Assembly: GCA_965223265.1 (NCBI GenBank)
Contig: OZ244999.1
Coordinates: forward strand, 4,128,001 to 4,192,000
DNA from: Planctomycetota bacterium
Lineage (GTDB): Bacteria > Planctomycetota > UBA8108 > SXIK01
DNA: 64,000 bases
Reading direction: 5' to 3'
Shown here: positions 45,103 to 63,205 of the stretch, piece by piece
Layout of the letters: each line of letters opens with the position of its first letter
Numbering within the stretch: the stretch's first letter is position 1
Position numbers and translations under genes: made by a program
The notes under the pieces: model-generated
Databases searched by the model: none
The model's input: the letters and a program-made list of their open reading frames with translations, nothing else
Told to the model about the DNA's origin: nothing

Positions 45103-45179
45103 CGGGGTGTGGCGCAGTTTGGTAGCGCGTCTGACTGGGGGTCAGAAGGTCGTAGGTTCAAGTCCTATCACCCCGACCA
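45103..45179 (+). tRNA. tRNA-Pro(GGG); likely island attachment site
   Basis: CGGGGTG/CACCCCG acceptor stem; TCTGA-CTGGGGG-TCAGA anticodon arm; GGTTCAAGTCC T arm; encoded CCA. Confidence 0.95.
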
Positions 45180-45284: not shown

Positions 45285-46505
45285 ATGGAGCGCAGGAGGG
45301 CGAGTCAACGGAATAAGAGCGCGAGGAAGCGGACACCGCGCTACTGCCGGCAAAAGAGGACGGGGCGGCCAGACCTCGCCTATGTCGAATTCGCCGGGTC
45401 GCGGTGCTACCTCGGTGAGTACGGCTCGAAGGAGAGCCGGGCCGAGTATCGCCGGCTGGTTGCTGAGTGGTCGGGAGCGAGTGGACGCGCGCCTGAACGT
45501 CTGAACGACCAGCTAACGGTCGTCGAGGTGATCGCAAGGTTTTGGGAGCACGCGCAGGTCTACTATCGACGAGCCGACGGCACGCCGACGAGCGAGGTGG
45601 CAAACTTCAAGACCGCGCTGCGGACGCTGAAGGAGCTCTATGGTCACACAAAGGCGGGTGACTTCGGACCGCGGTCACTGAAAGCGATTCGCTCGCACCT
45701 CGTCAAAAGGGGACTGGCACGCACGACCGTAAACGCCATGACAAAACGTATCCGATCGGTGTTCAAGTGGGCCGTCTCGGAGGAGTTGGTGCCGCCCTCG
45801 GTGCATCACGGCCTGCAGGCGGTCTCAGGTCTGAAGCGCGGACGTTCGGAGGCGCGCGAGACAAGCCGCGTTCTACCGGTGCCCGAGGAGTTCGTCGAGG
45901 CCGTCAGGCCATACGTCTCGAGGCAAGTGTGGACGCTGATTCAGCTGCAGAAGCTCTCCGGGGCGCGTTCGGGGGAAATTTTGGGGCTCCGGCCGCGTGA
46001 CATCGATACATCGGGAGAGGTCTGGAGCTACTCACCTCCGAAACACAAGACAGCTCACCACGATCATTCGCGGGAGCTCTTCTTCGGCCCCAAGGCGCAG
46101 GCTTTGCTCCGGCAGTGGATGGAGTCGCGTCCGCTCGCTGCGTCGCTCTTTTCGCCGGCGGACGCCGAGACCGAACGACGAGCGCAGCAGCACGCGGAGC
46201 GAAAGACGCCTCTTCGCTACGGCAATCGCCCAGGCACGAACCGGAAAGAGTCTCCAAGACGAACGCCGCGCGACTGCTACACCGTGGACAGCTACGGACG
46301 GGCTATTCGCCGCGCGTGTGAAAAAGCAGGGATTCCCCCATGGCATCCCCACCAGCTGCGCCACAATGCGGGCACGGAGATCCGAAAGCAGTTCGGTATC
46401 GAGACGACACGGATCGTCCTCGGACACCAGTCCGTGGTCGTCTCCGAGCTCTACGCCGAGCGCGACCGAGCGATCGCTATCGACGTGATGGGGAAGTTGG
46501 GGTAG
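45285..46505 (+). CDS. Tyrosine integrase 1
   Basis: GGAGG RBS; N-terminal arm-binding-like region; GARSGE, KHKT, HQLRH, LGH and ELYA catalytic motifs. Confidence 0.93.
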   Translation: MERRRASQRNKSARKRTPRYCRQKRTGRPDLAYVEFAGSRCYLGEYGSKESRAEYRRLVAEWSGASGRAPERLNDQLTVVEVIARFWEHAQVYYRRADGTPTSEVANFKTALRTLKELYGHTKAGDFGPRSLKAIRSHLVKRGLARTTVNAMTKRIRSVFKWAVSEELVPPSVHHGLQAVSGLKRGRSEARETSRVLPVPEEFVEAVRPYVSRQVWTLIQLQKLSGARSGEILGLRPRDIDTSGEVWSYSPPKHKTAHHDHSRELFFGPKAQALLRQWMESRPLAASLFSPADAETERRAQQHAERKTPLRYGNRPGTNRKESPRRTPRDCYTVDSYGRAIRRACEKAGIPPWHPHQLRHNAGTEIRKQFGIETTRIVLGHQSVVVSELYAERDRAIAIDVMGKLG

Positions 46506-46697: not shown

Positions 46698-47921
46698 GTG
46701 CCCGAAAACACAGGAAGCAGTCCGAGAAACGCGCGGCGCCGCCGCATGGCGCCGCGCTATCGGCGGCAGCGACACAGCTTGCGGGCGGACCGCGCCTTCG
46801 TCGAGCTCTCCGGGCAACGAATCTACCTCGGCGAGTTCGGCTCCGAAGGCAGCTGGGAGATGTATCACCGCGTCGTGGCGGAGTGGGCTGCGAGTGGTCG
46901 ACGACCGAGAGAGGGGACGACGGACATCACCGTGAACGAGATCATCGTTCAATTCTCCCTCTACGCCGATTCGTACTACCGACGCGCTGACGGATCCCCC
47001 ACCGGCGAGTTCGACAACTTCAAGCAAGCCATGCGGCCGCTGCGGCGGCTTTATGGACGAACGCCGGCAGCAGAGTTCGGCCCGATGGCGCTGAAGGCGG
47101 TGCGGCAAACTCTCATCGACGACGGTCTTGCGAGAACCACGGTGAATGCTTCGACACGGCGGCTGCGTCAAGTCTTCAAGTGGGCAGTGTCGGAGGAGCT
47201 TTTGCCGGCAGACGTGCTCCACGCCTTGCAATCAGTTCCGCCGCTCAAGCGCGGCAGGACGGAAGCGCGCGAGCCCAATCCGATACGGCCAGTACCCCGC
47301 CAGGACGTTGAGGCGGTGAGGCCACATGTGTCGCGGCAGGTGTGGACGCTGATCCAAGTCCAACTCCTCACGGGGGCGCGCAGCGGCGAGCTCTTGCCGA
47401 TGCGGGCGGTCGATCTGGACACAACCGGGAGTGTGTGGGTGTACAAGCCGCAGTCGCACAAGAACGACTATCGCGACCAGGAGCGCCAGATCTATCTAGG
47501 GCCGCGTGCGCAGGATCTGATCCGAGGTTTCCTTGTGAATCGTTCGCTCACCGCACCGCTCTTTTCACCCAGGGAAGCTGAGGCAGAGAGATCCATAACG
47601 AGACACGCCGATCGTAGGACGCCGCCCGGCCGCGGCAACATGCCCGGATCCCACCTCAGCTCCGAAGCAAGAAGGAGATCGCCCGGCGAGATGTACGATA
47701 CGCGCAGCTACGCACGAGCGATTCGTCGCGCTTGCGAGCAAGCTATGATTGCGGTGTGGAGCCCGCACCGTCTTAGGCACACCCGTGCCACGGAGATCCG
47801 CCGCGAGTATGGCCTCGAGGTCTCGAGGGTGATCTGTGGCCACAGGTCCACAGCGGCAACGGAGATCTACGCGGAGGTCGACCACCAGCGAGCGATCGAG
47901 CTGATGGGGAAGATAGGTTGA
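46698..47921 (+). CDS. Tyrosine integrase 2, paralog of integrase 1
   Basis: AGGAGG RBS with GTG start; GARSGE, SHKN, HRLRH, CGH and EIYA; colinear with integrase 1, both ending MGK(L/I)G. Confidence 0.93.
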   Translation: MPENTGSSPRNARRRRMAPRYRRQRHSLRADRAFVELSGQRIYLGEFGSEGSWEMYHRVVAEWAASGRRPREGTTDITVNEIIVQFSLYADSYYRRADGSPTGEFDNFKQAMRPLRRLYGRTPAAEFGPMALKAVRQTLIDDGLARTTVNASTRRLRQVFKWAVSEELLPADVLHALQSVPPLKRGRTEAREPNPIRPVPRQDVEAVRPHVSRQVWTLIQVQLLTGARSGELLPMRAVDLDTTGSVWVYKPQSHKNDYRDQERQIYLGPRAQDLIRGFLVNRSLTAPLFSPREAEAERSITRHADRRTPPGRGNMPGSHLSSEARRRSPGEMYDTRSYARAIRRACEQAMIAVWSPHRLRHTRATEIRREYGLEVSRVICGHRSTAATEIYAEVDHQRAIELMGKIG

Positions 47922-48272: not shown

Positions 48273-48468
48273 GTGAAGATGGTTCGAGACGTCTGCGTTC
48301 CCACGAATGTGTTTGTCGGTGTCTTTGCGATGTCCTTGTTCACATCCGTCGCAAACGGACAGAACAACATCTACGAGTCGGACTACGTGATCAAGCCGCA
48401 GCCGGATCTGCGCGCAGAGTTCCGGCTCAGCGGTGATCCGGAGGAGATCGCCAGGGCGCGCCTGCGCG
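48273..48468 (+). pseudogene. M36 protease gene, fragment 1 (signal peptide and start of propeptide)
   Basis: GGAGGG RBS; hydrophobic signal ending VANG; runs into the RIT left end. Confidence 0.7.
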
Positions 48469-48616
48469 GCAACACATGGGGAGTTCGGAGTTATGTGGAG
48501 TAGCGGAGTGAAGTCGTTGCTTTACAACACGTTCCAGTTCTCGCTCTCCCCATAAACCGGTAGCGTCGGTCTCCTCAGCACCCGCGGTGGGTGCCCCTCA
48601 AATCGGGAGATCGACC

Positions 48617-49876
48617 ATGATCGAAAAAGCTGAATCGTTCCCAGGCAGATCGTCACTCAGCGGCCTCGTCGCCGCTGCTCTTCGCCACCTCGAAGGTCTC
48701 GGCTACAGCCGACGAACTGTCGGGTACTATCGGAATTCGTGGAACAAGCTTCTCGAGTTCGCTCGAGAGTCGAAGCGGCGCGCGTTCTCGTCCGAACTCG
48801 TCTGTCGGTTCTTGGCTCACCACGGGATCAGCTCCGACGCTGATCAGGGGAAGCTACGCTGGCGTGAGGTCGAGCTGCTCAAGGCGCTGCGGATCCTCAC
48901 GGAGTTCGCCGAAGGCGGCAGCTTTCGGCCGTACCGCAAGCGGCTTCCCGAGCCGGTCTTCGCCAAGACGATCGCGGCCGAGCTACTGGCCTACGAGGCC
49001 TTCTGCCGTGAGCACCTCGGACATCGCCCCTGCACCGTCGCGCAGCGCCGAAGAGTGGTCGTCCAGTTCTTTCAGTTCCTCAACCCTCGAGGCATCTCCG
49101 CCTTGCGAGGACTGAGGACGCGCGACTTCTGCGATTTTCTCGACTCTCTCACGCAGTTGAGTCCTCCGTCGCTCGCCGCCGTATCAGGAGCGCTCAAGTC
49201 CTTTGTCCGCTACCTGTGCATGCGTGGGATCGTCGAACCGAAGGTGGCGGATGAATGGGTTCCCATCCGCTTCGCGAAGGAGAGTCGGCTTCCGTCCGTC
49301 TGGCCGGCAAGCGCGGTAAAGGAACTCCTCGCCGCTGTGGATCGTAGCACCACACAGGGCAAACGAGATTACGCCATCCTTCTCCTCGCTTGCCGCTTCG
49401 GCCTTCGAGCCAGCGACATTCGGACGTTGCGTCTCGACGACATCCGTTGGTCGAACGGTCGCATTGACCTTCGTCAGTCGAAGACAGGTCAGCCGTTGAC
49501 GCTCCCCCTCGAGGACGACGTCGCCGACGCACTCATCGATTACCTCCAACACGGCCGGCCGGCGACGAGCTATCGCCAGGTGTTTCTGAAGACCCGTGCT
49601 CCGGTGGCACCTCTCGGGGAGCGAAACAATCTCGTCACCATCGTGTCTTCTCACCTCAGCGGCCTGAAGACGCCTCTGCCTGCGGAGACCCGACGCGGCC
49701 TCCATGCTCTTCGTCACACTCTAGCCACACGTCTCCTCCGGGCTGGCGAACCGCTCGAGACGATTGCGGCGATCCTCGGACACACCTCGGTCGAGTCGAC
49801 CAGGCTCTATACGAGTCTCGACCTGGAAGCTCTGCATTGCGTCGCTCTCGACCCCGAGGAGGTGCTCCATGGGTAG
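48617..49876 (+). CDS. ritA: RIT tyrosine recombinase A
   Basis: RDYAILLL..GLRASDI, QSKT, GLHALRH, ILGH and TRLY. Confidence 0.88.
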   Translation: MIEKAESFPGRSSLSGLVAAALRHLEGLGYSRRTVGYYRNSWNKLLEFARESKRRAFSSELVCRFLAHHGISSDADQGKLRWREVELLKALRILTEFAEGGSFRPYRKRLPEPVFAKTIAAELLAYEAFCREHLGHRPCTVAQRRRVVVQFFQFLNPRGISALRGLRTRDFCDFLDSLTQLSPPSLAAVSGALKSFVRYLCMRGIVEPKVADEWVPIRFAKESRLPSVWPASAVKELLAAVDRSTTQGKRDYAILLLACRFGLRASDIRTLRLDDIRWSNGRIDLRQSKTGQPLTLPLEDDVADALIDYLQHGRPATSYRQVFLKTRAPVAPLGERNNLVTIVSSHLSGLKTPLPAETRRGLHALRHTLATRLLRAGEPLETIAAILGHTSVESTRLYTSLDLEALHCVALDPEEVLHG

Positions 49877-50849
49877 CGAACAGTCAGCGTTTCGCAGTCC
49901 CGTGCGAGATCTGATGGTGAAGTTCCTCGAGGAGAAGCGCGGCTGTGGATACCGCTATGAGAGGGAGGAGTACCTTCTGCGAGCGTTGGACAGCTTCCTC
50001 GTTGCTCGAGGGCTTCAACGCCGGGAGCTGCCGAGAGTCCTCGTACAGGACTGGACCGCCGCGCGCGCCGATGAACGTCCCAGGACGCAGCGCATGCGGC
50101 TGACGATCGTTCGTCAACTGGCGATCTTCCTCTGTCGGCAAGGCTGCTCGGCCTACGTTACGCCCCTGAATCCAAGGCGCGGTACACGTCGTGAATTCAC
50201 GGCGCGCATCTTCAGCCGGGAGGAAATCGCAAAGATCCTTCAGGCAGCTGACGACCTCGCCCCCTGTCGATGGTCGCCTCTCTATCATCTCGTGATCCCG
50301 GAACTCTTCCGCGTGCTCTACGGCTGCGGTCTTCGCCGAGGAGAGGCTCTTCGCTTGACAGTCGGAGACGTCGATCTCGTGGACGGAGTCCTTCGAATTC
50401 GCGAAGGCAAGTTTCGCAAGGACCGCCTTGTTCCCATCGCTCCCGGCTTGACTGAGCGGCTTCGTAGGTACGCCGAAGCACTCGACCCCCGCGAGCCTGG
50501 ACAGCCGTTCTTCCCGTCCCCGCGCGGCGGCGCGTATTCCTCCGGGCGCGTGTACACGATTTTCCGCAAGCTCTTGGGAGCCGCTGGCATTCCACACCAC
50601 GGTCGCGGACGCGGCCCTCGTCTCCACGAGATTCGCCATTCCTTTGCCGTACATCGGCTCGAGAACTGGTATGCGGAGGGTGTGGATTTGAACGCGAAGC
50701 TGCCGCTGCTCTCGTCGTACATGGGCCACCGCTGCATGCACGGTACCCAGGTCTACCTCCAGATGACCGAGAGCCTGTTCACCAACGTCACGGAACGGCT
50801 CGAAGCCGTCTGCGGTCATGCCATTCCGAGCGGGAGCAGAACCTCATGA
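49869..50849 (+). CDS. ritB: RIT tyrosine recombinase B
   Basis: GCGLRRGEAL, GKFRKDRLVP, PRLHEIRHSFAV, LSSYMGH and TQVY; overlaps A and C. Confidence 0.88.
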   Translation: MGSEQSAFRSPVRDLMVKFLEEKRGCGYRYEREEYLLRALDSFLVARGLQRRELPRVLVQDWTAARADERPRTQRMRLTIVRQLAIFLCRQGCSAYVTPLNPRRGTRREFTARIFSREEIAKILQAADDLAPCRWSPLYHLVIPELFRVLYGCGLRRGEALRLTVGDVDLVDGVLRIREGKFRKDRLVPIAPGLTERLRRYAEALDPREPGQPFFPSPRGGAYSSGRVYTIFRKLLGAAGIPHHGRGRGPRLHEIRHSFAVHRLENWYAEGVDLNAKLPLLSSYMGHRCMHGTQVYLQMTESLFTNVTERLEAVCGHAIPSGSRTS

Positions 50850-51865
50850 CGATCGCGAAACCCACCGACTTCGCCTGTCGACTCACTTCTTTCCTGACCG
50901 AGTACCTCCCATCCCAGCGAGGTCTCAGTCCGAACACGATCAAGAGCTACCGCGATGCGTTCGTGTTGCTGCTGCGCTACTGCCGTGAGGTCTGCGAGAT
51001 GCGCATCGAGCGCCTGTCGCTGGAAGCGATCGACGCGTCTCTCATCGTGAAGTTTCTCGGGCATCTCGAGAAGGAGCGCGGCTCTTCAACCCGAACTCGA
51101 AACCATCGCCTCGCCGCATTCCACTCTTTCTTCAAGTACGTCCAAGTCGAGGAGCCGGATCGGATTCAACACTGCCAACGCATTCTCGCGATCCCGCTTC
51201 GGCGCATAGCGCAGACTGAACCCACCTACCTGTCAGTCGAAGAACTGGCCGCGATCCTGAGACAACCAGACTCAACGACGCCTCAGGGACGCCGGGACGC
51301 TCTCATGTTGAGTCTGCTTTACGACACAGGAGCTCGCGTGCAGGAGTTGATCGATCTCTCGATCGCGGACCTTCGTCTCGCCTCCCCTCCGCAGGTGCGC
51401 TTGACTGGAAAGGGGCGAAAGATCCGCGTCGTCCCGCTCATGAAAGGAACGGCTGCCAACCTCGGCGAGTACGTCAAGGAGCACGCTCTCGATCGTCCCG
51501 AACAGGCGAACGAACCGCTCTTCGTGAACCGGGCGGGTAACCGTCTCTCCCGATGGGGAATACGACATCTTCTGTCCAAGTACAGCGAGGCCGCTCGAGT
51601 CGAGTGCCCGACGCTACCGCAGAAGATCACTCCTCATACCTTACGCCACACGAAGGCGATGCACCTCTTGCAGAGCGGCAACCCCGCCGTCGTAATCCGC
51701 GACTTCCTCGGTCATTCGGACATCCAGAGCACCCAGATCTACGCGAAGGCCGACCTGGACATGAAGCGGCGCGCCCTCGAGAAGGCCAATCAGCTTCCGG
51801 AGAGCAAGAAGGACCGATCGTGGCAACGCGATCCGGACCTTCTCACGTGGCTCGGATCGCTGTAG
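50846..51865 (+). CDS. ritC: RIT tyrosine recombinase C
   Basis: S.NTIKSYRD, YDTGARVQE, GKGRK, TPHTLRH.KAMHLL, FLGH and TQIYA. Confidence 0.88.
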   Translation: MTIAKPTDFACRLTSFLTEYLPSQRGLSPNTIKSYRDAFVLLLRYCREVCEMRIERLSLEAIDASLIVKFLGHLEKERGSSTRTRNHRLAAFHSFFKYVQVEEPDRIQHCQRILAIPLRRIAQTEPTYLSVEELAAILRQPDSTTPQGRRDALMLSLLYDTGARVQELIDLSIADLRLASPPQVRLTGKGRKIRVVPLMKGTAANLGEYVKEHALDRPEQANEPLFVNRAGNRLSRWGIRHLLSKYSEAARVECPTLPQKITPHTLRHTKAMHLLQSGNPAVVIRDFLGHSDIQSTQIYAKADLDMKRRALEKANQLPESKKDRSWQRDPDLLTWLGSL

Positions 51866-51986
51866 ACGCGCGGCCGATTTATGGAGAGTCCCAACGCGCC
51901 GAAGCGCCTCCGGTCGAGACAGGCGTCCGCTACTCCACATAACTCCGAACTCCCCATGTGATGAGTGATGTGGAGCTCCACATCAC

Positions 51987-52669
51987 CGCACAAGGAGCAG
52001 CTACGGGTGGTAGATTCAGACATCGACGACCTCGAAGTCGTCCGCAGCTACCGCGATGAGCACAATGGAATCACCCATGTGTACTTTCGCCAAACGGTGC
52101 AGGGGATCGAGGTGCTCGACGGCACGGCTGCCGCCCACATCCGAGGCGTCCGCGACGTCGTCGCCATCAGCTCGCACGTTGTCCCGCGCGCTCGGGAGCG
52201 GGTGAACACGTTCGAACCCACGCTGTCGCAGGAGGACGCACTCTGGATCTGTACCGTAGACTGCGATCTTGGAAACGCGCCAGCCAGCCCGAAGGTAACG
52301 GAGGAGGCAGACGATGCCAGCCTCAGAAAAACTTTCGACCTACCTGCGATCGCCCGAGGTCCGGTCCCCGTGCAGCTCAAGTTCGCTCCGCTGGGCGAAG
52401 AGCTCAGGCTGTGCTGGAGCGTGAAGATCTCTCGGCGCGACGGCGCCGATTCCTTCGAGAGGCTTTACGATGCGGTAGACGGCGAGGAGCTCAGTTACAG
52501 GAGTTTCGTCGCGCATGCCACGCCGGAATTCAAGGTGTTTCCGCTGGCGGACTATGGCAATCCGACGATGCCGCCGGTGGAGAGTCCGGCGCATGGGAGT
52601 CAAACGCGCGTAATAGATGGATCCGACCCGACCTTCGTTCTTCCTAGCACTATTCCAACGCCCAGCCCA
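51987..52669 (+). pseudogene. M36 protease gene, fragment 2 (FTP/PepSY-like propeptide and start of the mature domain)
   Basis: DIDDL.V..Y.D..NGITHVYFRQTVQGIEV; LCWSV; YDAVDGE.L; FKVFP...ESP. Confidence 0.8.
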
Positions 52670-54151
52670 CATGCGTGATCGGTTAGCCGTAAGCTCCATC
52701 GTAGTCATCGCTTACGACTCGAGCGATTCGTGCGTATAGAAAAAGAGGCCAAAATCTCGGACACTTCGTGACTCACCAAAGAAACGGAGTGAAGAGATCA
52801 TGGCCACAAGGAAGTGTATCGAACTACGATCCTGTCTCAAGAGCCTCTTTCCCGACAAGTTGATCCGCGATGAGTCTCGAGCGAGTGGTTTTGTGCTCCG
52901 GGAGCGAAAGATCAGGGCGGTTCCGTTCTTTTGGACATTGGTCCTGGGCTTTGGGGTTGGATCGGAGCGGACGATCTCTGCGCTGCGTCGAGCCTACGAA
53001 CGCTCGACGTCGTCGACCGTTGTTCCGTCCTCGTTCTACGATCGTTTCGACGCCAGTCTTGTGCGCTTTCTGAAAGCTGCGGTGAAGCGATCGTTGGCAA
53101 CCTTTCAGGCATCGTGGACTGAAATCGAGGAGCGCGTCGGAAAGTTTACGGACTTGATCATCGTTGACTCCACAGTGATGAAGCTTCACGAAAAGCTCAG
53201 AGGATCGTTCCCAGGGTGCCGAACGAACTCAGCGCCGGCTGCGGCGAAACTTCATGCAGTCCTCAGTGTGCGCGGCAAAGGAGGCTCGACGGTCGCTCTC
53301 ACTTCGGAGCGAAGTGCGGACCTGCGAAAACTTCGCACAGGTCCGTGGGTTCGAGACCGCCTTCTCCTCTTCGATCTCGGCTACTTCAAGTGGCAGCTCT
53401 TCCATCGCATCAGGAAAAACGGTGGCTTCTTCCTGACTCGATTGAAGCAAAACGCCAACCCGACAATTACCAAAATCCATCGCAGTGTTCGCGGCAACTC
53501 GATCCCCCTCGTGGGGGAGAGACTTCAAGACGTCCTACCTCGATTGAAAAGAGAAACTCTCGACGTTGAGATCGAAGCCTCGTTTGCAACCCGCAAGCAC
53601 CGAGGCCGAGCGCGTCGCGCTCACGAGCGTTTTCGACTTGTCGCCATCCGCAACGAAGACGACGGCCAGTATCACCTCTACGTCACCAACGTCGAACACG
53701 ACGATCTCATCGCCGAGGAGATCGCCAACGTCTACCGCTATCGCTGGGAAATCGAACTCATCTTCAAGGAGCTAAAGTCCGGCTACCGAATGGACCAGCT
53801 GACGAGCCGGCGCCCCCACGTGGTGGAAGCGATGATCTACTGTGCAATTCTGACACTTGTCGTCAGCCGAGAGCTTCTACGCCACCTTGCCTCACGAGTC
53901 CGCAGCGGTGCCGAGCGAGTCGCTGCGGGGCGTTGGTGGAAGCTTCTGGCGAACTACGCTCAGGAGCTTCAACTCCTCGTCGTTCGACCACGCCGAGACG
54001 CTCACCTCGCCGCTGGACTCGTCGACACCTTCCTGCACGAAATTGTCGACCCTCATACTGACAGACGCCCACTCTTGAGTCAGGTGTTTCGTTGATGTGG
54101 CGCCGTAAGTTTCATCTCTACAGAGCTTTGCGCGTTATCCGATGCCGCATG
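52670..54151 (+). mobile_element. IS4-family insertion sequence, 1482 bp
   Basis: Imperfect inverted ends CATGCGTGATCGG / CCGATGCCGCATG; 10-bp target duplication GCCCAGCCCA at 52660-52669 and 54152-54161. Confidence 0.92.
52800..54095 (+). CDS. IS4-family DDE transposase
   Basis: IVDST, LFDLGY and YRYRWEIELIFKELK (YREK signature). Confidence 0.93.
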   Translation: MATRKCIELRSCLKSLFPDKLIRDESRASGFVLRERKIRAVPFFWTLVLGFGVGSERTISALRRAYERSTSSTVVPSSFYDRFDASLVRFLKAAVKRSLATFQASWTEIEERVGKFTDLIIVDSTVMKLHEKLRGSFPGCRTNSAPAAAKLHAVLSVRGKGGSTVALTSERSADLRKLRTGPWVRDRLLLFDLGYFKWQLFHRIRKNGGFFLTRLKQNANPTITKIHRSVRGNSIPLVGERLQDVLPRLKRETLDVEIEASFATRKHRGRARRAHERFRLVAIRNEDDGQYHLYVTNVEHDDLIAEEIANVYRYRWEIELIFKELKSGYRMDQLTSRRPHVVEAMIYCAILTLVVSRELLRHLASRVRSGAERVAAGRWWKLLANYAQELQLLVVRPRRDAHLAAGLVDTFLHEIVDPHTDRRPLLSQVFR

Positions 54152-54161
54152 GCCCAGCCCA

Positions 54162-56337
54162 TGGGTATACGACCTGGGGGGCGAAGCGTGCACGACAGAG
54201 GGCAATAACATCAAGGCCTTCGCTGTTGACAATACTTCAGAGTACCAGCCAACAACGAGCAACTGCCTATTCGTTTTCGAAGAACTCACACTCCAGAATC
54301 TCAGTGACCCAACAGACCCGGATGGTTTTGCTTCTGATCCTTCGCTCTATCTCGACGCCACCATCGCAAATGCCTTTTACAACACCAATGTCCTGCACGA
54401 CATCTTATATCGATACGGGTTCAATGAAGCAGCTGGAAACTGGCAAAACGACAACTTCAGCCGGGGTGGATCTCCGGGAGATCCCTTACACGTACAATAC
54501 ACTCCGGATATCGCATCCAGCAATTTCTTTTCGTCCTCTCAAGATGGTCTAATATCGACCCTCGATCTTGGCATCAATGCAATCATATCAATCGGTCGTT
54601 CAACGATCCCCCTTCCCCCAGATGCAGTCAGCCCCATCGCGGCTACCATAGCCGACTTTAGTCAAGATCAAGACGACAAACTCGATCTTGTGATCGCAAA
54701 TCATCTCTCTGGAAATGTAACTCTCTTTCTCAATGACGGAAACGGGGGGTTCATTCCCGAGCCGAGTTATTCCACCTTCGGAGTGTCTCCAACCGACATT
54801 GTCGCTGGGGTTCTCGACAGTGACGTCTACGTTGATCTCGCGGTAACGCATGCAACCTCCAACTCCGTCACAATTCTCCTAAACGACGGAAACTCCCCGC
54901 CTGGATTCTCCGCGACGGTCTATGTCCTTCCGGGATCTGACTATCCTGTTTCACTCGCTACGATTGACCTGGATGGAGACAGCGACCTTGATTTGATCGT
55001 CGCAAACCGCGATTCTCAAAACGTGACGCTACTGGAAAATGTCGGGTCGTCGTTTTCGATCCATGCGCCCATAGATATACCGGGGAGCCCAACGAGCGTT
55101 TGCGCAGCAGACGTTGACGGAGATGCGGACAACGACGGCATTTTGGCAATCCAAGACGTCGTCGGAAGCAGCGTCTGCGGCGCGACGCCGGCAGACGCTG
55201 TCGTTGTACTCGAGAATTCTGGGGGTTGGATTTTTTCTGTGGGAAGTGTAACGTGCATCGAGCCCGATAGAGACCCCAGTTCAGTAAGTGTCGCTAATTT
55301 TGACGGATACGAAGACGGAGACGAAGACGTCGACATAGTTGTCGCGCAAAGCGGAACTGAATTCGTCGACATATTCGACAACGACGGGGACGGCCAATTT
55401 TCTCTTCTCAGCTCAGTCTTCCTAGGGGGAACGGCGGTTGCAGCCACTTCGGTCGCCCACACGCCGACCGGAGCCCATGAGGAACTTAATCTAAGCTCTG
55501 AGACTAGACCCACCGACGAGCTGCCGGATGTGAGCGCTGTTTCATCAGCCCCAGGAACGTTGGCCAGCCGTATTAACCGAAGCACTAGTAAGAAGCGCGG
55601 ATTATTTGCTAGAGTTACTCAAGAAAGCCTTAACGCCCAAAGTGATTTTGAGTTGACAGATCTGGGAACAATTCACGACGTAGTTGCGGGGAACCTGGCG
55701 GGGGGAGCAGACCCCGATGTTGTCGTTATTTCGCAGCAAGGGTGCGAAGTTTTTACAAATGACGGTATTGGTTCGTTTACTGCTCCCGGGATTCATTCCT
55801 TCAGAAGCGGAGCTTTGGATCTCTCAGTCATTGCACATGAGCTCAGCCACGGCGTAGTTTCCCGCCTGACCGGAGGAATATTCAGGCCCGGAGGCGGAGC
55901 TTCTCAAGCGTCTGGCCTAGTCGAAGGCTGGGCAGACGCCATGAGCCTCCAATTGACGGGGCCACGCGACGGCGACAGCCCTCGAGGTATGTTCACGTTT
56001 TGGAGCGGCCATTTGCCTTCGGGATCCGGAGTTCGCATCCTCCCGTACAGCAACGATCAATCTGTAAACCTGTGGACGTTCGGAGATCATGAACTCCTAA
56101 TTAGCGAGGACCACGCTGGGCCGTTCGGCACTGGGCATGCAGCTGGAGAGATCTGGGCAGTCACGCTTTGGGATCTCTACTGGCTTCTCATCGGTCTCTA
56201 CGGCCAGAGCGGCGATCTATACGCGGCGTTTGGCTCAACGCTCGGCGGAGAAAACGTGTCACTTAAGCTGGCCATCGACGCACTAAAGTTTGCGCCCGGA
56301 AACCCCGCTACTTATGTGACACATCGGAATGCCTACC
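54162..56337 (+). pseudogene. M36 protease gene, fragment 3 (catalytic domain with inserted FG-GAP repeats)
   Basis: Open frame from 54162; FYNTNVLHDILYRYGFNEAAGNWQNDN..RGG; D.DGD.D.D repeats; HELSH...EGWAD; GEIW..LWD. Confidence 0.88.
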
Positions 56338-56578
56338 TGCTGAGTCCCACAAACTCTGGCTCGTGAGCAGCGACGAGTCTCAGATTCACTGACCCGGAAA
56401 CGCCCCGGCATACCCCGCCGAACCGACCGTCCGATCATACCCCGCCTACCCCGCGCCCCCCGTTCGACGCTGCGCCCTGGACCTTCGCTCGACTCCTCGC
56501 CTCACCTCGAGTAAAGAGGGGAGCGGAGAGACCGGTGTTGGTGCACTTCTCTCCGCAAGTCCCCGTACGGAGAGAGCG

Positions 56579-57247
56579 ATGCTACCCCATTTGGTCAACG
56601 CGATACAGAGCTATGGCGAAGCTGTTCGCCGCCGTGAGATCCAGCCGACCTGTAACCGCTGCCCGAATTGCAGCGGGGAGCCAGATCGGTTCCGCTACCG
56701 CGGTCACCGAGAGCGCGTGTTCCTCGTTATCGTCAGGCGTCTGGTCGAACCTGTCCTGTCGCTTCTGAGTCGCTGGAAGTGTCCTCTGTGTAAGCGCTCC
56801 TTCACGCTCTACCCGCCCTTCGCGCTGCCGGGGAAACGCTACGTTCGCGACTGCGTTTTCGATCACGCTCGGCGCTACCTCCAGATCGACGAGCTTTCGT
56901 ATCGCGAAGCCGTCAAGGTCGAACACATGCCCGTCTTCCACGAGGGTGACGACAGGGGAGCGATCGACGAGCGCAGCCTCGCGCACTCAACACTTCATCG
57001 TTGGCTTTCGTTCTTTCGCTCTCTCAACGCCACGCTCCTGGAGGCTCTCCGCCTCATCCGAGAGCGCTCGGCGAGGTCCGACATCTTCCGCAAGGTCTTC
57101 GCCGTCCGTCCAGCCAAGTACCGAAGCGAATCACGGCGGGACACTCTCGTCGCGGCACTTCGAGCTCTCTCGATCGACCAGGTGTTCCGTTCCCTCTTCG
57201 GCCGATCGATCTTCCCCGACTTGGCAACCTCCGCAGCCTGGGCGTGA
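56579..57247 (+). CDS. Transposon accessory zinc-ribbon/HTH protein (DUF6431-like)
   Basis: CPNC...RWKCPLCKRSFTLYP.F..P.KRY; C-terminal STLHRW. Confidence 0.7.
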   Translation: MLPHLVNAIQSYGEAVRRREIQPTCNRCPNCSGEPDRFRYRGHRERVFLVIVRRLVEPVLSLLSRWKCPLCKRSFTLYPPFALPGKRYVRDCVFDHARRYLQIDELSYREAVKVEHMPVFHEGDDRGAIDERSLAHSTLHRWLSFFRSLNATLLEALRLIRERSARSDIFRKVFAVRPAKYRSESRRDTLVAALRALSIDQVFRSLFGRSIFPDLATSAAWA

Positions 57248-57287
57248 GCGAGAATCACGCCTCGCTCGCCCCATGCGAGGTGTGATC

Positions 57288-58850
57288 ATGAAAGCGAAAG
57301 ATCTCGATTGGGCTATCTTCTGGGCGGCTCTTCTCCAGCCCGTCGTCATCGGCGAGGTGCCGGAGGAGGAAGCCGCGCGATTTCTCCGCGAGCTCGCCAA
57401 AGAAGAGCGCATCTTTCCCGACGGATCGCGACGCAAGCCGGCTCTTTCGACCCTGAGGCGGAAGCTTCGCATCTATCGCGAGGAGGGCTTCGAGGGTCTT
57501 GCCCGCAGGCCGCGAAGCGATCGCGGGAAACCGCGTGCCCACGGCAAAGAGCTCGTCGAGAAAGCCGTCGAGCTGAAGCGTGATCAGCCACTGCGCTCCC
57601 ACTTCGCCATCAACAAGTTCCTCCAGGCTCAGCACGGAAAGACCATTCCGCGTTCGACCCTCTTCCGCTACCTCAAGATCGCCGGCGCGACGCGGCTGAA
57701 GCTCGGTGTCGAGAGGAGGAAAGTCCGGAAACGCTGGACTCGTGACTCCACCCATGCCCTCTGGGTCGGCGACTTCGCCGATGGACCCTACGTGCTGCAC
57801 GACGGCGAAGTCGTCCCCACCTTCCTCTGTGTTCTCATCGACTGCTACAGCCGCTCGCTCGTCGAGGGGCGCTACTACCTTCGGCAAAATCTCGAGGTCT
57901 TGATCGACTGCTTGCTGCGGGCGTGGGCCAAGCACGGTGCTTCGGACGAGCTCTATGTCGATCAGGCGAAGGTCTATATCTCCAAAGCGCTCAAGGCGGC
58001 ATGCCTTGCCGTTGTCACCCGGCTCATCCATCGCGGCAAGGGCGATCCGCCACCGGGTGGTCTCGTCGAACGACTCATCGAGACGATACAGGGCCAGTTC
58101 GAGGCCGAGGTCAGAGCCGGCGAGATCCTCACTCTCGACTCGCTCAACGGAAGCTTCGATTCCTGGAAGACCGTGGCCTACCACCGCCAGGTCAACACCG
58201 AGACCGGCGAAACACCCGAGGCACGAGCCGAGGCCGGCCTCAAACGGCCTATCCGACACGTCGACATTCAGCGCGTCACCGAGTTCTTCATGTGCCGCGA
58301 GACGCGGCGCGTTCACCCGGACTTCTCCGACGTCCAGCTCGATCGCCGCTTCTATCGCGTCGACAAGAGTCTGCGCGGTGACAAGGTCGAAGTCCGCTAC
58401 GATCCCTTCTCCGCGCCCGACACGGTTCTCATCTACTCCAGCAACGAAGAGTACCTCGGAAAGGGCGTCCTTCACGAGCGCGAAGAGGGCGAGGACGCCG
58501 GTGCTCCCGCCCCTCCCGCCAAAGCGAAGCACAACTATCTGGAGCTTCTTCGCCGTGAGCACGACGAGGAGCTCAAGAAGCGCGCCCAGGGGATCGACTA
58601 CCGTCGTGTCATCGCCTCTCGCCAGTGGCCCTTCACCGACTTCGCATGCCTTCTCGGCCGGCTCATGGGGCGCAAGGGCGCCCTCTCGAGCTTCACCGCC
58701 GAGGAGCTCGAGGAACTCAAGAAGTTCTACAACCGTACTCCCAGCCTCACCGAAGTCCTCTTGCTGAGGGCCTTCGAGAAGGCTCCGGAGAAATCCATTC
58801 CCTACATCGCCTACGAGCTTCAACGACTCGCAGGCAGAAAGGAGGACTGA
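57288..58850 (+). CDS. DDE integrase-type transposase with Mu-like C-terminal domain
   Basis: HTH (STLRRK..YREEG.EGL..PRSD.GK); LWVGD, IDCYSR, LYVDQ and G.VER; KVEVRYDP. Confidence 0.9.
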   Translation: MKAKDLDWAIFWAALLQPVVIGEVPEEEAARFLRELAKEERIFPDGSRRKPALSTLRRKLRIYREEGFEGLARRPRSDRGKPRAHGKELVEKAVELKRDQPLRSHFAINKFLQAQHGKTIPRSTLFRYLKIAGATRLKLGVERRKVRKRWTRDSTHALWVGDFADGPYVLHDGEVVPTFLCVLIDCYSRSLVEGRYYLRQNLEVLIDCLLRAWAKHGASDELYVDQAKVYISKALKAACLAVVTRLIHRGKGDPPPGGLVERLIETIQGQFEAEVRAGEILTLDSLNGSFDSWKTVAYHRQVNTETGETPEARAEAGLKRPIRHVDIQRVTEFFMCRETRRVHPDFSDVQLDRRFYRVDKSLRGDKVEVRYDPFSAPDTVLIYSSNEEYLGKGVLHEREEGEDAGAPAPPAKAKHNYLELLRREHDEELKKRAQGIDYRRVIASRQWPFTDFACLLGRLMGRKGALSSFTAEELEELKKFYNRTPSLTEVLLLRAFEKAPEKSIPYIAYELQRLAGRKED

Positions 58851-59641
58851 TGTTCACCACCCATTTCAAGATGACGACGCAGCCCTTTCTCGAGCGCGCG
58901 CCCGTCGAGCAGATTCTTTCCGACGAGCGCATCACCCAGGGACTCGCTCGACTGGAGTACCTCGCCAAGTCGGGCTCGATCGGCCTGGTGACCGGACTCA
59001 CCGGGGTGGGGAAGTCGTCTCTGGTGAAGCTCTTCGTGCGCTCGCTGAGCCGCAACCTCTACGACCCGATCTATCTCTCGCTGACCTACGTCGGGGCAAA
59101 CGGCATTCTGAAGCTCCTGGTTTCCAGCCTCGGCGAGCAGCCCCGCCGTGGCAAGGAGCGGCTCTTCCTCCAGATCCTGGATCGCGTCGGGGCGAACGAG
59201 CACACGACAATCCTCGTCATCGATGAAGCGCACCTGCTTCCTTCGGAGTCGCTCACCGATCTGAGACTTCTGGTCAGCTCCGGACTCGAGGACGGCCCGC
59301 CATTGAAGATCCTCCTCAGCGGACAAGAGACCCTGAGAAAGGAGCTTACCCGAGCGCGCCACGCCGATCTCACGCATCGGCTCAGCGTGCGCTACCACGT
59401 GCCGCCGCTCAGCAAGGAGCAGACGGTCGAGTACATCGACTTTCAGATGCGCGCAGCCGGCGCCTCGCAGAAAGTCTTCGAGCCTGAAGCGAAGTCGCTC
59501 ATCCACGACTACTCAAGCGGCGTGCCGCGGCGCATCAACAACATCGCCACCGCCTGCCTCATTCAGGCCGCGAGCAAGAACGTCCAGAAGATCTCCGAGG
59601 CGCTCGTCAACGACACCGCCCCCGAGTTCCATCTGCCCTGA
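58850..59641 (+). CDS. ExeA/TniB-like AAA+ ATPase (transposition helper)
   Basis: Walker A GLTGVGKS; Walker B LVIDEAH; LLSGQ; GVPRRIN; TGATG stop-start overlap with the transposase. Confidence 0.9.
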   Translation: MFTTHFKMTTQPFLERAPVEQILSDERITQGLARLEYLAKSGSIGLVTGLTGVGKSSLVKLFVRSLSRNLYDPIYLSLTYVGANGILKLLVSSLGEQPRRGKERLFLQILDRVGANEHTTILVIDEAHLLPSESLTDLRLLVSSGLEDGPPLKILLSGQETLRKELTRARHADLTHRLSVRYHVPPLSKEQTVEYIDFQMRAAGASQKVFEPEAKSLIHDYSSGVPRRINNIATACLIQAASKNVQKISEALVNDTAPEFHLP

Positions 59642-59660
59642 GAACGGAGACTGACGCGCC

Positions 59661-59954
59661 ATGTTCCACAAGACCCTGATGCCTCGAGTCAACGACTTCG
59701 CCGAGTATCCTGAGCTCGCCGTTTTGATGACCCTCGCGACGAACCTCGAGATCGCCCTGTTCGCTCTGAACGCCGCGTACCCCGATCTCGACTTCGACTA
59801 CACGCAACGCTCCTCCTACACCGAGCAAGACGCCTATCTCGCCGCCTTGGGCGCTCAGCTGCGAGCGCTCCAGATCGTCCTCGAAGAGTATCTCGAGAGC
59901 CTGCAACGAATCCGATATTTGAAGGCGCCGAGCGGTGGAGGTGGCGTCGCATGA
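59661..59954 (+). CDS. Small helical hypothetical protein of the transposon
   Basis: GGAG RBS; 97 aa; ATGA overlap with the next gene. Confidence 0.65.
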   Translation: MFHKTLMPRVNDFAEYPELAVLMTLATNLEIALFALNAAYPDLDFDYTQRSSYTEQDAYLAALGAQLRALQIVLEEYLESLQRIRYLKAPSGGGGVA

Positions 59955-60268
59955 CAGGACGATTCTCCGGCAAGCTCCTGCGGTCGTTGAGAAACGATAT
60001 ACCGATCGCGTGGCTCCTCGATCTGCTCGGCGTCCCCGCGAAAATCTCCGAGGGCTACGTGCGCTTCCTCTGTCCGCGGTGTCGCGAATTCAACACCGCG
60101 ACGAAGGCGTCCACCAACCTCGCGCGTTGCTTTCGCTGCGAGACGAACTTCAACCCGATCGACCTGGTCATGATCGTCAAGCGGCTGAATTTCGTCGACG
60201 CCGTCGAGTTCCTCGCCGAGCTCCGCGATCGTCGCGGTGACGCTCGCGCCACGCCTCGCCCTTCGTGA
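59951..60268 (+). CDS. Primase-type (CHC2-like) zinc-finger protein
   Basis: FLCPRC...NLARCFRCETNFNPIDLVM....NFVDAVEFL; followed by a hairpin at ~60274-60308. Confidence 0.8.
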   Translation: MTGRFSGKLLRSLRNDIPIAWLLDLLGVPAKISEGYVRFLCPRCREFNTATKASTNLARCFRCETNFNPIDLVMIVKRLNFVDAVEFLAELRDRRGDARATPRPS

Positions 60269-60408
60269 TTCCCCGGGTCGTCGTGCCGTCCGGGACACGA
60301 CGACCCGCGCCTTCTCGCCTCGCAAATCGCATCTCGCACCCGCGAATCAGCACCATGCCATTTAATCTGGGATTTCCGCGCCAGATACTGTGGGACTTAG
60401 CACCTACC

Positions 60409-61949
60409 TGATCGCAGACAGCCTGACTTTTTCGGGATCGCATCTCACCCTCATCTGGGAAGCATTCGCCGGTCGAGGCCTTGGACACGGAGCATGTGAC
60501 AACTGGGACGTCAATTCGAGTCAATGCAACCCACATGATCCTGCTGGTCAAGTCCTGGAGGACTTTTCCCTCCCCCCTCCTGGAACCATCCGCGGAAAAG
60601 TATGGGAGGCAGAGGACTGCGACCTGAACCCACTCGGCACTCTTTCGGGTTGGGTTGTGTACCTCGACCTCAACAAGAATAATTCTCTAGATCCTGGAGA
60701 ACCGACGGATTCCACAGATGCATCTGGGCAGTATGAGTTTTCCGGCCTAGGCCTTGATTCTTATTGGGTCGGACTTGAGATGCAAACAGGCTGGAATTTG
60801 GTGGCCCCAATCCCCGAATTTGGGCCGCCAACTCGGATATGGAGAGACCCAGATCCGAGCATTTTCTACACCGACGTCTGGGCTGTTGGGGATATAGCTC
60901 TCGTTGGTCACAGCGAAAACAAAGGCGTAAGCATAATAGATCTAACGAAAATCTATCAAGGACACATCGATCATGCGCTGATCACTCGATGGGCAGACGT
61001 AGACTCCTCCGGACAAAACACCAACACAAATACGATAAAGGACGTAAAAGCAGAAGGCAACATCGCTTTCTTTGCCAGCGACAACGGTGGCGGCGTCTAC
61101 ATCATAGACATCTCCAACCCCATGAACCCCAAAAAAATCTCGCAGGTGACATCACAAAATGGGGCTTTCGACAAGGTGCACAACGTCTCAATCGACGATA
61201 GTTTTCTTTATCTAGCTAGCGATTTGACAAGTACCGTTCCGATCTTTGACATCAGGGATCCGAACATTCCAGTCTTACTCCATACGATTGACACAAATGG
61301 AGGAGTGGTCCACGACATTACTGCCCTGGACGATCGACTTTATGTTTGTGATCGAGAGACCCCTGGAAATCCAGGAGTATCTGGAAAAATCCACATATAC
61401 GATATTGCACGGAATGCGGTTGGAGACTTTGTGTCCGCCACGTTCGTGACTTCATTCACCGCCGGAGACCAAACTCATTCTTGCTGGCCGACAAAGAACG
61501 GAGATTATCTCGTCGTCTGTAAAGAGGACCTAACTAATTCGGTCGAGGGGAACAAGGTCGATATTTGGAGAATTGATATCTCTCCTCCACAGAAGAAAGC
61601 GACAATTACTCGACACCCGAACTCAGCCACCACCGCGCACAATCCGGTAGTCGAGGATGATACCCTGTATATTTCTTGGTACGAAGCCGGATATTTTAGC
61701 TATGACATCTCGAATCCGGAGGCGCCGAGATTTCTCGGTTTAGTGGATACGTTCCCACAGGGAGCTACGGCACAGACCGGTGTTGGTTGCTGGGGAGTCT
61801 ACCCTTTCATTGATCAGGGCTGGACCATCGCGACAGATACAGTTTTCGGACTTCATGCAAATCGTAGTGATACTCGGCATTTTGTCCCGAACACACAGGG
61901 AGGTCTCCATGAAAACCATGATTTTTATGTTTCTCAAGATTGTCCGTAG
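60409..61949 (+). pseudogene. M36 protease gene, fragment 4 (end of M36 domain, SdrD-B-like domain, LVIVD-type propeller)
   Basis: LIAD...H..LIWEAFAGRGLG; GWVVYLDLN.N..LDPGEP...TDASGQYEFSGL; IIDISNPMNP, IFDIRDP and YDISNPEAP repeats. Confidence 0.85.
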
Positions 61950-62284
61950 TACAGACTATCTATTGCATGAAAGTAGGAAACCTTCGAAGACTACATGATG
62001 TATCATCCTCCAAAACAGGTCTCTAAAATCACAACGAGCCACAATCGCTTGACAGCCTATAGACGCCCATCCTGCCCACATCTTGGTTGCGCCCGAGGGC
62101 CTGTCAGACTCGTCTGCTATTGAATTTGCTCAGAAGACTCGGTCTTTGCAGCAAGGCACCGTCGAGCGCACGGTCTTGGAGATTCGCCCACACGGAATTG
62201 AACCCGTAATCCTCACACACAGTAGTCGCTACGACGATCGAATCGATGTTGACGTGTCTCGAGTAAGAAAACCCGGAGTTGATC

Positions 62285-63205
62285 ATGAAAGTCACAAGAT
62301 TATCGATCCTGGCGCTGACAATGATCATTGACATCCTATTCGATCTACGATGCACGCATGCGAATTCCACGGATCAACGCTGGTGGCCCCTCGAGCCGGG
62401 AGCCGCGTGGTGTCTATTTGACGGGCGAGAAGGCTGGGAGGTCTTGATTCTTGGGCGGGAAGACGATGTCTTTCTCGTGCGATACCAGTTCGTAGCGTCC
62501 TTTGGCGACGGTCCTCTCGTAGTGCTTGATTCTCTTGACCTCCGCTTGCGAGAGCAGGGATCTGAGATCGACATCGAGATACAACCGGGAGAGTTTCACC
62601 CGTACGTACGTTTCGATCGAGAGTCATTTACGAGGCGTGATGCTGACTTCTGCTGGGACGATGTCGAGATCGCAGTTGACACCGTAGATTCGATTGAGGT
62701 ACCAGCGGGGCGATTCTCTCAGTGTCGACAGCTCTTTCTTGTCGGTCCCCAGAAGTGCTTTGACAATGGGACTGAAACTCAGGTCTTCTGCCCTGACATA
62801 GGGTTGGTTCATTGGTCATCGATCATCCCCACTGGTGTCGAAAGGAGCGATCTTCGTTCGGCGACCCAGATCGACTGGCCGTTCCGCCGCGGCGACGTCA
62901 ACGCCGACGCTGAAGTCGACATCTCAGATGCCGTTTTGACGTTGAATTTTCTCTTCGACCCCAACATCGACCCGGACGTCGTGCAGTGTCGCGATGCCGC
63001 CGATGTCAACGACGATGGCACCGTCGATATCTCGGACCCGATTTACTCCCTGAACTACCTGTTCGTCGACGGCCCCGGGATTCCGACGCCTACCGAGGAG
63101 TGCGGCGACGACCCGACCGAGGACGATCTCCGCTGCCTTTCGCATCTGCCGTGCGTCGATACTCGCGAGCCCGGGACAATACCAATCGAAGGCGAGTCCA
63201 ACTGA
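62285..63205 (+). CDS. Exported protein with a WWPL..G..W / VPAG.F N-terminal domain and C-terminal dockerin-like domain
   Basis: GGAG RBS; signal-like N-terminus; FRRGDVNAD..VDISDAV...DVNDDG..DISDPI...CGDDPTEDDL.C. Confidence 0.8.
   Translation: MKVTRLSILALTMIIDILFDLRCTHANSTDQRWWPLEPGAAWCLFDGREGWEVLILGREDDVFLVRYQFVASFGDGPLVVLDSLDLRLREQGSEIDIEIQPGEFHPYVRFDRESFTRRDADFCWDDVEIAVDTVDSIEVPAGRFSQCRQLFLVGPQKCFDNGTETQVFCPDIGLVHWSSIIPTGVERSDLRSATQIDWPFRRGDVNADAEVDISDAVLTLNFLFDPNIDPDVVQCRDAADVNDDGTVDISDPIYSLNYLFVDGPGIPTPTEECGDDPTEDDLRCLSHLPCVDTREPGTIPIEGESN

Follow-up and report, generated by a model that had tools for sequence, protein, structure and literature searches.

The stretch of DNA analysed in this work (hereafter the window) comprises 64,000 nucleotides of the 9.18-Mb single-contig genome of a Planctomycetota bacterium, and contains between positions 48273 and 61949 a protease gene that is distributed over four pieces, which are separated by a RIT element (encoding a trio of tyrosine recombinases), an insertion sequence (IS) of the IS4 family and a transposon encoding a transposase and an AAA ATPase. 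This arrangement had been proposed in an earlier reading of the window, made from its letters alone and referred to here as the sequence-only reading, and the description of the three mobile elements as unrelated proved accurate. As judged from their sequence, the four pieces are one protease gene, being co-linear across all joints with an intact homolog, i.e. the metagenome protein P0125 of 1,615 amino acids (aa). The pieces of the gene and the parts of the three elements are as follows (bp, base pairs).

48273..48468, + strand: protease piece 1, with the start, a signal-peptide-like N-terminus and the early propeptide region, codons 1-65 plus one base (basis: translation; P0125 alignment from residue 26; analysis of the 6-bp segments, which places the true end within 48467-48473).
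48468..48473: left 6-bp exchange segment of the RIT element, GGCAAC, right after the flank motif CTGCGC (same layout at 3/3 copies).
48474..51985, + strand: RIT element, with inverted repeats at about 48474-48507 and 51926-51959.
48587-49876 (ritA), within 49764-50849 (ritB) and 50846-51865 (ritC), + strand: RIT genes, with three Phage_integrase matches.
51960-51965: internal 6-bp segment of the RIT element, GATGAG.
51966-51985: perfect 20-bp palindrome of the RIT element, present in the genome only at the three RIT copies.
51986..51991: right 6-bp exchange segment of the RIT element, CCGCAC.
51987..52669, + strand: protease piece 2, carrying the FTP motif of the propeptide and the beginning of the M36 domain, codons about 66-293 (basis: Pfam FTP, PF07504, 47.7 bits against a cut-off of 21; 1,114 library proteins, including P0125, at E<=0.001 in an exhaustive HMMER search; P0125 co-linearity).
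52660-52669 and 54152-54161: 10-bp target duplication of the IS4 element, GCCCAGCCCA.
52670-54151, + strand: IS4-family insertion sequence of 1,482 bp, ends CATGCG...CGCATG, transposase at 52800-54095.
54162..56337, + strand: protease piece 3, with the M36 catalytic domain and an FG-GAP block nested before HELSH, codons 294-1018 (basis: Pfam Peptidase_M36, PF02128, 184.3 bits against a cut-off of 23.3, profile positions 42-342 of 368; FG-GAP_3, 93.7 bits; two-part match to solved fungalysins).
56332-56337 and 60403-60408: 6-bp duplication of the transposon, CCTACC.
56338-60402, + strand: transposon of 4,065 bp, ends TG...CA, imperfect inverted repeats of 26 nucleotides (nt).
56579-57247 (weak DUF6431), within 56946-58850 (DDE transposase) and within 58625-59641 (AAA_22 ATPase): transposon genes.
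59661-59954 and 59951-60268: small frames of the transposon.
60409..61949, + strand: protease piece 4, with the M36 end, an SdrD-B-like region, the LVIVD-repeat C-terminal domain and the stop, codons 1019-1531 (basis: Pfam LVIVD, 25.1 bits; co-linearity with P0125, and with P0025 as far as the final residues of the latter).

Joining of the four pieces generates a sequence of 4,596 bases that forms a single frame of 1,531 codons, in which the sole stop is the terminal one, and none of the four pieces contains an internal stop in its own frame; the sequence-only reading had given the same joined length and had likewise seen no stop or frameshift in any piece. The joints, located at residues 65, 293 and 1018 of the joined product, are translated as RARLRA/HKEQL (RIT), PTPSP/WVYD (IS4) and RNAY/LIAD (transposon), which reproduces the earlier junction readings (the first of which had been given as RLRA/HKEQL), and the HExxH...E site that had been reported as intact is present as HELSH at residue 852, followed by LVEGWAD. 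Comparison of the joined translation with full-length homologs, the check proposed for the claim that the pieces belong to one gene, returned P0125 in one BLASTP stretch (26-1505 against 73-1592, 33% identity, E reported as 0), which crosses all three joints without gaps at joints 1 and 3 and with small gaps in a variable loop at joint 2, and thus bears out that claim. The third joint is also spanned by P0025 (1,277 aa), of which residues 6-1276 align with 305-1530 of the joined product (E 3e-152), reaching the final residues of P0025 itself. The expectation that automated annotation would miscall the locus was correct, in that piece 2 is found in the public protein collection as a separate protein of 223 residues (source annotation). 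A gene of 1,531 codons is thus invisible to gene callers, which report fragments instead, and since it is split by them, inventories of proteases or domains for this genome will be slightly wrong.

If intact, the gene is predicted to encode a secreted fungalysin-type (M36) zinc metalloprotease. The protein would begin with a signal peptide and an FTP propeptide, continue with a catalytic domain into which an FG-GAP block is inserted, and end in an SdrD-B-like region and LVIVD repeats. The Pfam matches to FTP, Peptidase_M36, FG-GAP_3 and LVIVD are distributed across pieces 2-4, and P0125 exhibits an identical domain set and order (FTP, split M36, FG-GAP, SdrD_B, LVIVD). No intact protease product is expected from the window, because the gene is interrupted three times. 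As in the fungalysins (M36; Aspergillus Mep, PDB 4k90, 7qp3), an FTP propeptide, an M36 profile and HExxH and EGWxD motifs are present, and the zinc site HELSHGVVSRLTGG...LVEGWAD pairs with HEYTHGVSNRLTGG...MGEGWGD of chain 7qp3_A (HExxH and an EGWxD-like motif). The match of piece 3 to this chain consists of two parts, residues 58-120 and 547-724 corresponding to chain residues 84-146 and 172-341, and unlike in the solved fungalysin, where the two parts are connected by about 25 residues (chain 146-172), they are here separated by an FG-GAP block of about 430 residues (piece-3 residues 120-547; window 54520-55800) that is nested just before the zinc helix. The SdrD-B-like and LVIVD domains, added at the C-terminus, constitute a further difference from fungalysin. 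The nested FG-GAP build is common to P0125 and P0025 and absent from other M36 matches, e.g. P0222; a homolog search with piece 3 was dominated by FG-GAP proteins, M36 being found only in P0025 and P0113 among the 120 matches listed. A pattern scan with P0125 of one genome per species returned two weak loci (in Saprospiraceae and Phycisphaerales genome bins) and no close full-length relative, suggesting that this fungalysin build, with its repeat block nested within the catalytic domain, is rare. P0025 and a second protein, P0124 (398 aa), are located on one Joint Genome Institute contig of 12,269 bases and cover residues 305-1530 and 16-280 of the joined product, respectively, so that this homolog may itself have been called in two frames, with the break near the position of the IS4 element in the window.

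The RIT element resembles the archetype of Cupriavidus metallidurans CH34 (PMC3414803) in having three adjacent tyrosine recombinase genes, a length of about 3.5 kilobases (kb), terminal inverted repeats and identical intragenomic copies, the RIT literature giving about 3,500 bp and repeats of 28-34 bp. Mobility of RIT elements is described as still lacking an experimental demonstration (PMC3414803), their mechanism as not having been deduced (PMC5737581), and RitA as possessing two N-terminal core-binding domains (PMC8138268). In the window copy, the three recombinases are encoded on the same strand by adjacent genes, the last two frames overlapping by 4 bases, and match Phage_integrase with 96.5, 73.0 and 115.8 bits; the N-terminus of RitA gives SAM-like matches at residues 30-78 and 145-213, of which one falls short of its cut-off (17 against 27 bits) and the other slightly exceeds it (23.6 against 22.3 bits). 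The inverted repeats have arms of 38 nt (97%), and a blastn search of the genome recovered three copies at 100% identity, among which 3,514 bp are conserved.

Alignment of the ends of the three copies (48462-48483 and 51950-51997 in the window; C1:2473624-2473669 and 2477136-2477163; C1:3318724-3318769 and 3322236-3322263) reveals the same layout in each: the flank motif CTGCGC, 6 bp, the body between the inverted repeats, 6 bp, the 20-bp palindrome, 6 bp and the other flank. The left end reads CTGCGC, then 6 bp (GGCAAC, TTTCTC or CTCATC), then ACATGGGGAG at 3/3 copies, and no target duplication is made. At copy 3 the palindrome is placed at the opposite inverted repeat, either because the body is inverted relative to the palindrome and flanks, or because entry occurred via the other of two equivalent sites. 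CCGCAC, the right segment of the window copy, recurs in copy 3 between the palindrome and the inverted repeat; this segment has therefore probably travelled with the RIT element, which makes GGCAAC the likelier original target sequence at the window site. This description differs from the account of the archetype in that the ends are resolved to the base, with a 20-bp palindrome between 6-bp segments, found on either side of the body, and a CTGCGC flank.

The length removed at the RIT joint is 3,518 bases, and two codons are ambiguous: the variants RLR-AH-KEQ (the cut chosen in the sequence-only reading), RLR-GN-KEQ and RLR-PH-KEQ each give 879 bases that are stop-free up to the IS4 site. The earlier statement that the RIT cut is uncertain by a few bp therefore stands with respect to these two codons, the removed length having been right. 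At copies 1 and 2, frames of 318 and 671 codons, respectively, return only upon removal of 3,514 bp plus 1, 4 or 7 bases, as would be expected if 3,518 bases net had been inserted; the 671-codon frame, split by copy 2 (C1:3318733-3322246), represents a second RIT-split gene of the genome. The window copy thus provides a clean example of RIT end structure, for which the empty site can be deduced from a reading frame.

Tyrosine-recombinase transposons of the Tn916/Tn554 type carry variable 'coupling' sequences and make no target duplication; for Tn554, the missing duplication is cited in PMC10214605. The RIT element is like them in that its short end segments vary between copies, no duplication is made, and CCGCAC is found again within another copy, as though brought along from an earlier site; it would be unlike them in having three recombinases and, by its apparent layout, a double site around a palindrome.

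The transposase of the second element matches NCBIfam transpos_IS4_1 (NF033592) with 238.9 bits (cut-off 115) as well as Pfam DDE_Tnp_1, and blastn retrieved three full copies (100, 99.93 and 97.6%) and two fragments from the genome. Removal of the element with one of its flanking duplications, as had been done in the sequence-only reading, is an exact cut. Two of the three full copies, that in the window included, are flanked by a 10-bp duplication; the third (C1:2456672-2458153, 99.93%) lacks a target duplication, which points to a rearrangement that took place later between copies. RIT copy 3 is located 15 kb from this same IS4 copy, with another repeated interval in between. In public sequencing run X4, from a second sample, a contig of depth 21 joins 52668 to 54099 on opposite strands, its shorter side being 55 letters, and may represent a different IS4 arrangement in that sample or a repeat artefact.

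The third element is present in 10 copies at >=99.93% identity, and a 6-bp duplication is found at 10/10 of these, the duplications being without a common motif; the cut made at its joint, which also leaves one duplication in place, is exact too. Its transposase matches Mu-transpos_C with 32.4 bits (cut-off 21.7), rve with 30.7 bits (just below the cut-off of 32.6) and HTH_32, the ATPase matches AAA_22 with 63.7 bits against a cut-off of 27, and a CHC2 zinc finger is weakly matched by one small frame. Profile searches recognised no cargo or resistance gene, no resolvase and no TniQ-like gene. The target duplication of Mu, Tn7 and Tn5053 is 5 bp, and that of Tn552 6-7 bp. In common with these, the transposon has TG...CA ends and a transposase composed of a helix-turn-helix (HTH), an rve-like core and a Mu-transposase C-terminal domain, with the AAA_22 ATPase encoded next; unlike Mu, Tn7 and Tn5053, it makes a duplication of 6 bp rather than 5 bp at all 10 copies, for which reason we describe it only as working like the Mu/Tn7/Tn5053 group and assign it to no named family.

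Upstream of the protease gene, the following features are found in the order tRNA-Pro, two tandem integrase genes and then, directly downstream, the protease gene itself.

45103..45179, + strand: tRNA-Pro (GGG), predicted by ARAGORN.
45285..46505, + strand: phage-type integrase gene 1, 406 aa, Pfam Phage_integrase 43.6 bits (cut-off 27.1).
46698..47921, + strand: phage-type integrase gene 2, 407 aa, in tandem with gene 1, Pfam Phage_integrase 42.4 bits.

The tRNA-Pro gene is the probable integration site of an island that holds the protease gene; a search for its right border covered the following 300 kb and recovered only self-hits, with no repeat of at least 14 bases of the 3' half of the tRNA-Pro gene. 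No paralog of the M36 or C-terminal parts was found in the genome itself, and no ortholog among 40 relatives plus this genome, where the piece 3 query matched the FG-GAP block only. With respect to base composition, the guanine-plus-cytosine (GC) content is 0.592, 0.618, 0.535 and 0.498 for pieces 1 to 4, respectively, compared with 0.6085 for the genome and with 0.546 for the 1st percentile of 2-kb windows. The sequence-only reading had called the gene AT-richer, which holds for pieces 3 and 4 but not for the host-like pieces 1 and 2. GC at third codon positions (GC3) falls from 0.77 to 0.53 across a broad change point near codon 267 of the joined gene (codons about 240-340). This change point (window about 52500-54300) is close to, not at, the IS4 site at codon 293, and is possibly an old recombination joint. 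Just 3' of the protease gene, a frame at 62279-63205 contains a dockerin type I domain (24.5 bits, cut-off 22.9).

The nearest sibling copies are identical at 100% for the RIT element, 100% for the transposon and 99.93% for the IS4 element (blastn), so that the hits are recent, as had been claimed; these same values leave the order of the insertions unreadable. Long frames are broken by the same elements elsewhere in the genome, namely by 4 of the 9 other transposon copies (411-905 codons), by 1 of the 2 other IS4 copies (961 codons) and by RIT copy 2, which indicates that transposition into genes is common in this genome. Following removal of the element and one duplication, the transposon copies at C1:1112753, 600413, 5140254 and 2784391 give frames of 905, 636, 547 and 411 codons, and the IS4 copy at C1:2379358 gives the frame of 961 codons.

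With the unity of the gene and the identities, limits, copy numbers and duplications of its three elements observed as described above, the reading that we favour, at a probability of roughly 0.8, is that the gene was destroyed by three independent recent insertions and is now a pseudogene in dispensable DNA, where further hits were neutral. The RIT element would have entered at codon 66 by a tyrosine-recombinase exchange in the 6-bp segment beside CTGCGC, adding 3,518 bases without duplication, the IS4 element at codon 293/294 by DDE transposition with its 10-bp duplication, and the transposon at codon 1018/1019 with its 6-bp duplication. A dispensable island gene would have tolerated the first hit and, once dead, two more; the later insertions would have persisted because they carried no cost after the first, and the pieces would be without stop or frameshift because the hits are recent only. 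We infer from the adjacent tRNA and integrase genes that the gene lies in dispensable, partly foreign DNA. The suggestion that the gene became a safe haven after a first knockout is thereby partly supported, and is the better of the two explanations that the sequence-only reading had offered (the other being a hotspot): the gene is single-copy, has no ortholog in the 40 relatives and adjoins the tRNA and integrase genes. Repeats cluster across this genome in general. The locus is like other IS-inactivated genes in transposon-rich islands with regard to its simple insertions with duplications, near-identical siblings and fragments annotated as small proteins, and is unlike the usual case in that three unrelated mechanisms have acted in one gene, all elements lie on the strand of the gene and the four pieces are undecayed. 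It is consequently a clean example of a known phenomenon, which leaves the understanding of such systems unchanged, and one in which three element types active in the same genome are documented within a single gene, each with limits that are exact to the base.

Several points weigh against this reading. Composition is host-like over roughly the first 270 codons (GC3 0.77), so that the gene is not simply 'foreign', and neither a close ortholog nor an empty-site allele was found, the uninterrupted gene thus being unseen in this lineage. The clustering of the elements counts in favour of the reading, since random placement of the 16 full copies puts at least three in a given 4.6-kb stretch with P = 8.5e-8, or 1.7e-4 genome-wide, but this chance rises to roughly 0.03 genome-wide (hand arithmetic) if all 88 repeated intervals of the genome (>=600 bp, >=95% identity, not all of which are mobile elements) are counted as insertions. 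Where 0.70 triples of these intervals within 14 kb would be expected, 4 are observed (P=0.007), a test that takes in gene paralogs and so overstates the clustering of mobile elements; the protease locus is the sole triple within 8 kb. Contigs from public runs (4 runs of 1 study, covering 2 samples) reach only 24-33 letters into the elements, and independent support for the joints is accordingly weak, the bridging rule of 31 letters selecting the left RIT border alone (33 letters), and this only if the border is at 48468. Furthermore, the data do not distinguish between neutral decay and selection for losing the protease.

That loss of the gene was itself favoured, the knockout of a costly secreted protease having swept with the first insertion and the others having followed, is nevertheless improbable. 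The enzyme is large (1,531 aa), secreted and without a paralog, and all three insertions are very recent, but a single insertion suffices to kill the gene, which leaves three unexplained, and the same elements break at least 6 other long frames, which points to general transposon activity rather than to targeted loss. An insertion hotspot, in which the DNA of the gene (by low GC, structure or motifs) would draw transposition irrespective of need, had been the other proposal of the sequence-only reading, and it would agree with the GC of pieces 3 and 4, which is far below that of the genome, with the transposon flanks, in which GC is below the genome mean of 0.608 at 8 of 10 copies (range 0.518-0.612, one being above and one, at 0.607, about equal), and with IS4 flanks of 0.551-0.593 (3 copies). 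The three mechanisms, however, use three different target sequences, the RIT element being found at CTGCGC and a 6-bp segment in 3/3 cases and the other duplications being varied and, for the transposon, free of a motif; distances of 0.7-2.2 kb separate the three sites within the gene, and the RIT element lies in its GC-normal part (RIT flank GC 0.593, 0.640 and 0.608). Considering the unshared targets, the spacing and the three mechanisms, a common sequence hotspot is unlikely, and this proposal was not upheld.

Misplacement of repeats inside an intact gene by the assembler would have to be considered in view of the multi-copy nature of all three elements, such repeats being the usual cause of misjoins; an artefact of this kind is extremely improbable, as the IS4 element and the transposon are bordered, like their siblings, by exact target duplications of 10 bp and 6 bp, respectively, the RIT flank motif and 6-bp layout are those of its siblings, and the public-run contigs contain each border between gene and element, though only 24-33 letters deep. 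The more speculative proposal of a reversible switch, in which excision of the element by the RIT recombinases would reactivate the gene, is not supported either and is very improbable. A fixed 3,518 bases are added without duplication, and removal of the RIT element restores the frame both here and in the 671-codon frame at copy 2, so that precise excision would be frame-neutral; the gene would remain broken by the IS4 element and the transposon, DDE elements seldom leave precisely, and no contig of the 4 runs joins 48468/51987, 52669/54162 or 56337/60409, which is weak evidence given that contigs drop rare variants. A narrower version, by which a gene holding only a RIT element can be switched reversibly and the protease was such a knock-out until the IS4 element and the transposon locked it, is doubtful; if true, the RIT layout of the 3/3 copies, with a palindrome on either side, would offer a testable model for a transposon family that lacks a shown mechanism.

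Apart from the neutral decay that we favour for the protease gene, the end structure of its RIT element can be compared with that in other genomes. Relatives of RitC were found at 80 loci (L018-L097) from many phyla, about ten of which are whole contigs of 3.4-3.6 kb, i.e. the element only. A crude scan of the 80 loci retained 33 with a detectable inverted repeat and enough flank, 43 having no repeat seen by the finder and 4 having short flanks. A palindrome of the TTATG...CATAA type is located just outside one repeat at 21 of these 33 loci, on the left at 11, on the right at 10 and on both sides at 0, and palindromes with arms of >=10 occur in 20/66 flanks, compared with 65/4,950 random 48-nt segments of the same loci. 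In the part of PMC3414803 available, 'sequence variation at the ends' and an 'overlapping palindromic sequence' are mentioned, both without explanation, and the palindromes at the RitC loci fit these two features. Switching of the palindrome from one side to the other between copies is observed in two other multi-copy genomes (L062/L063 and L030-L032).

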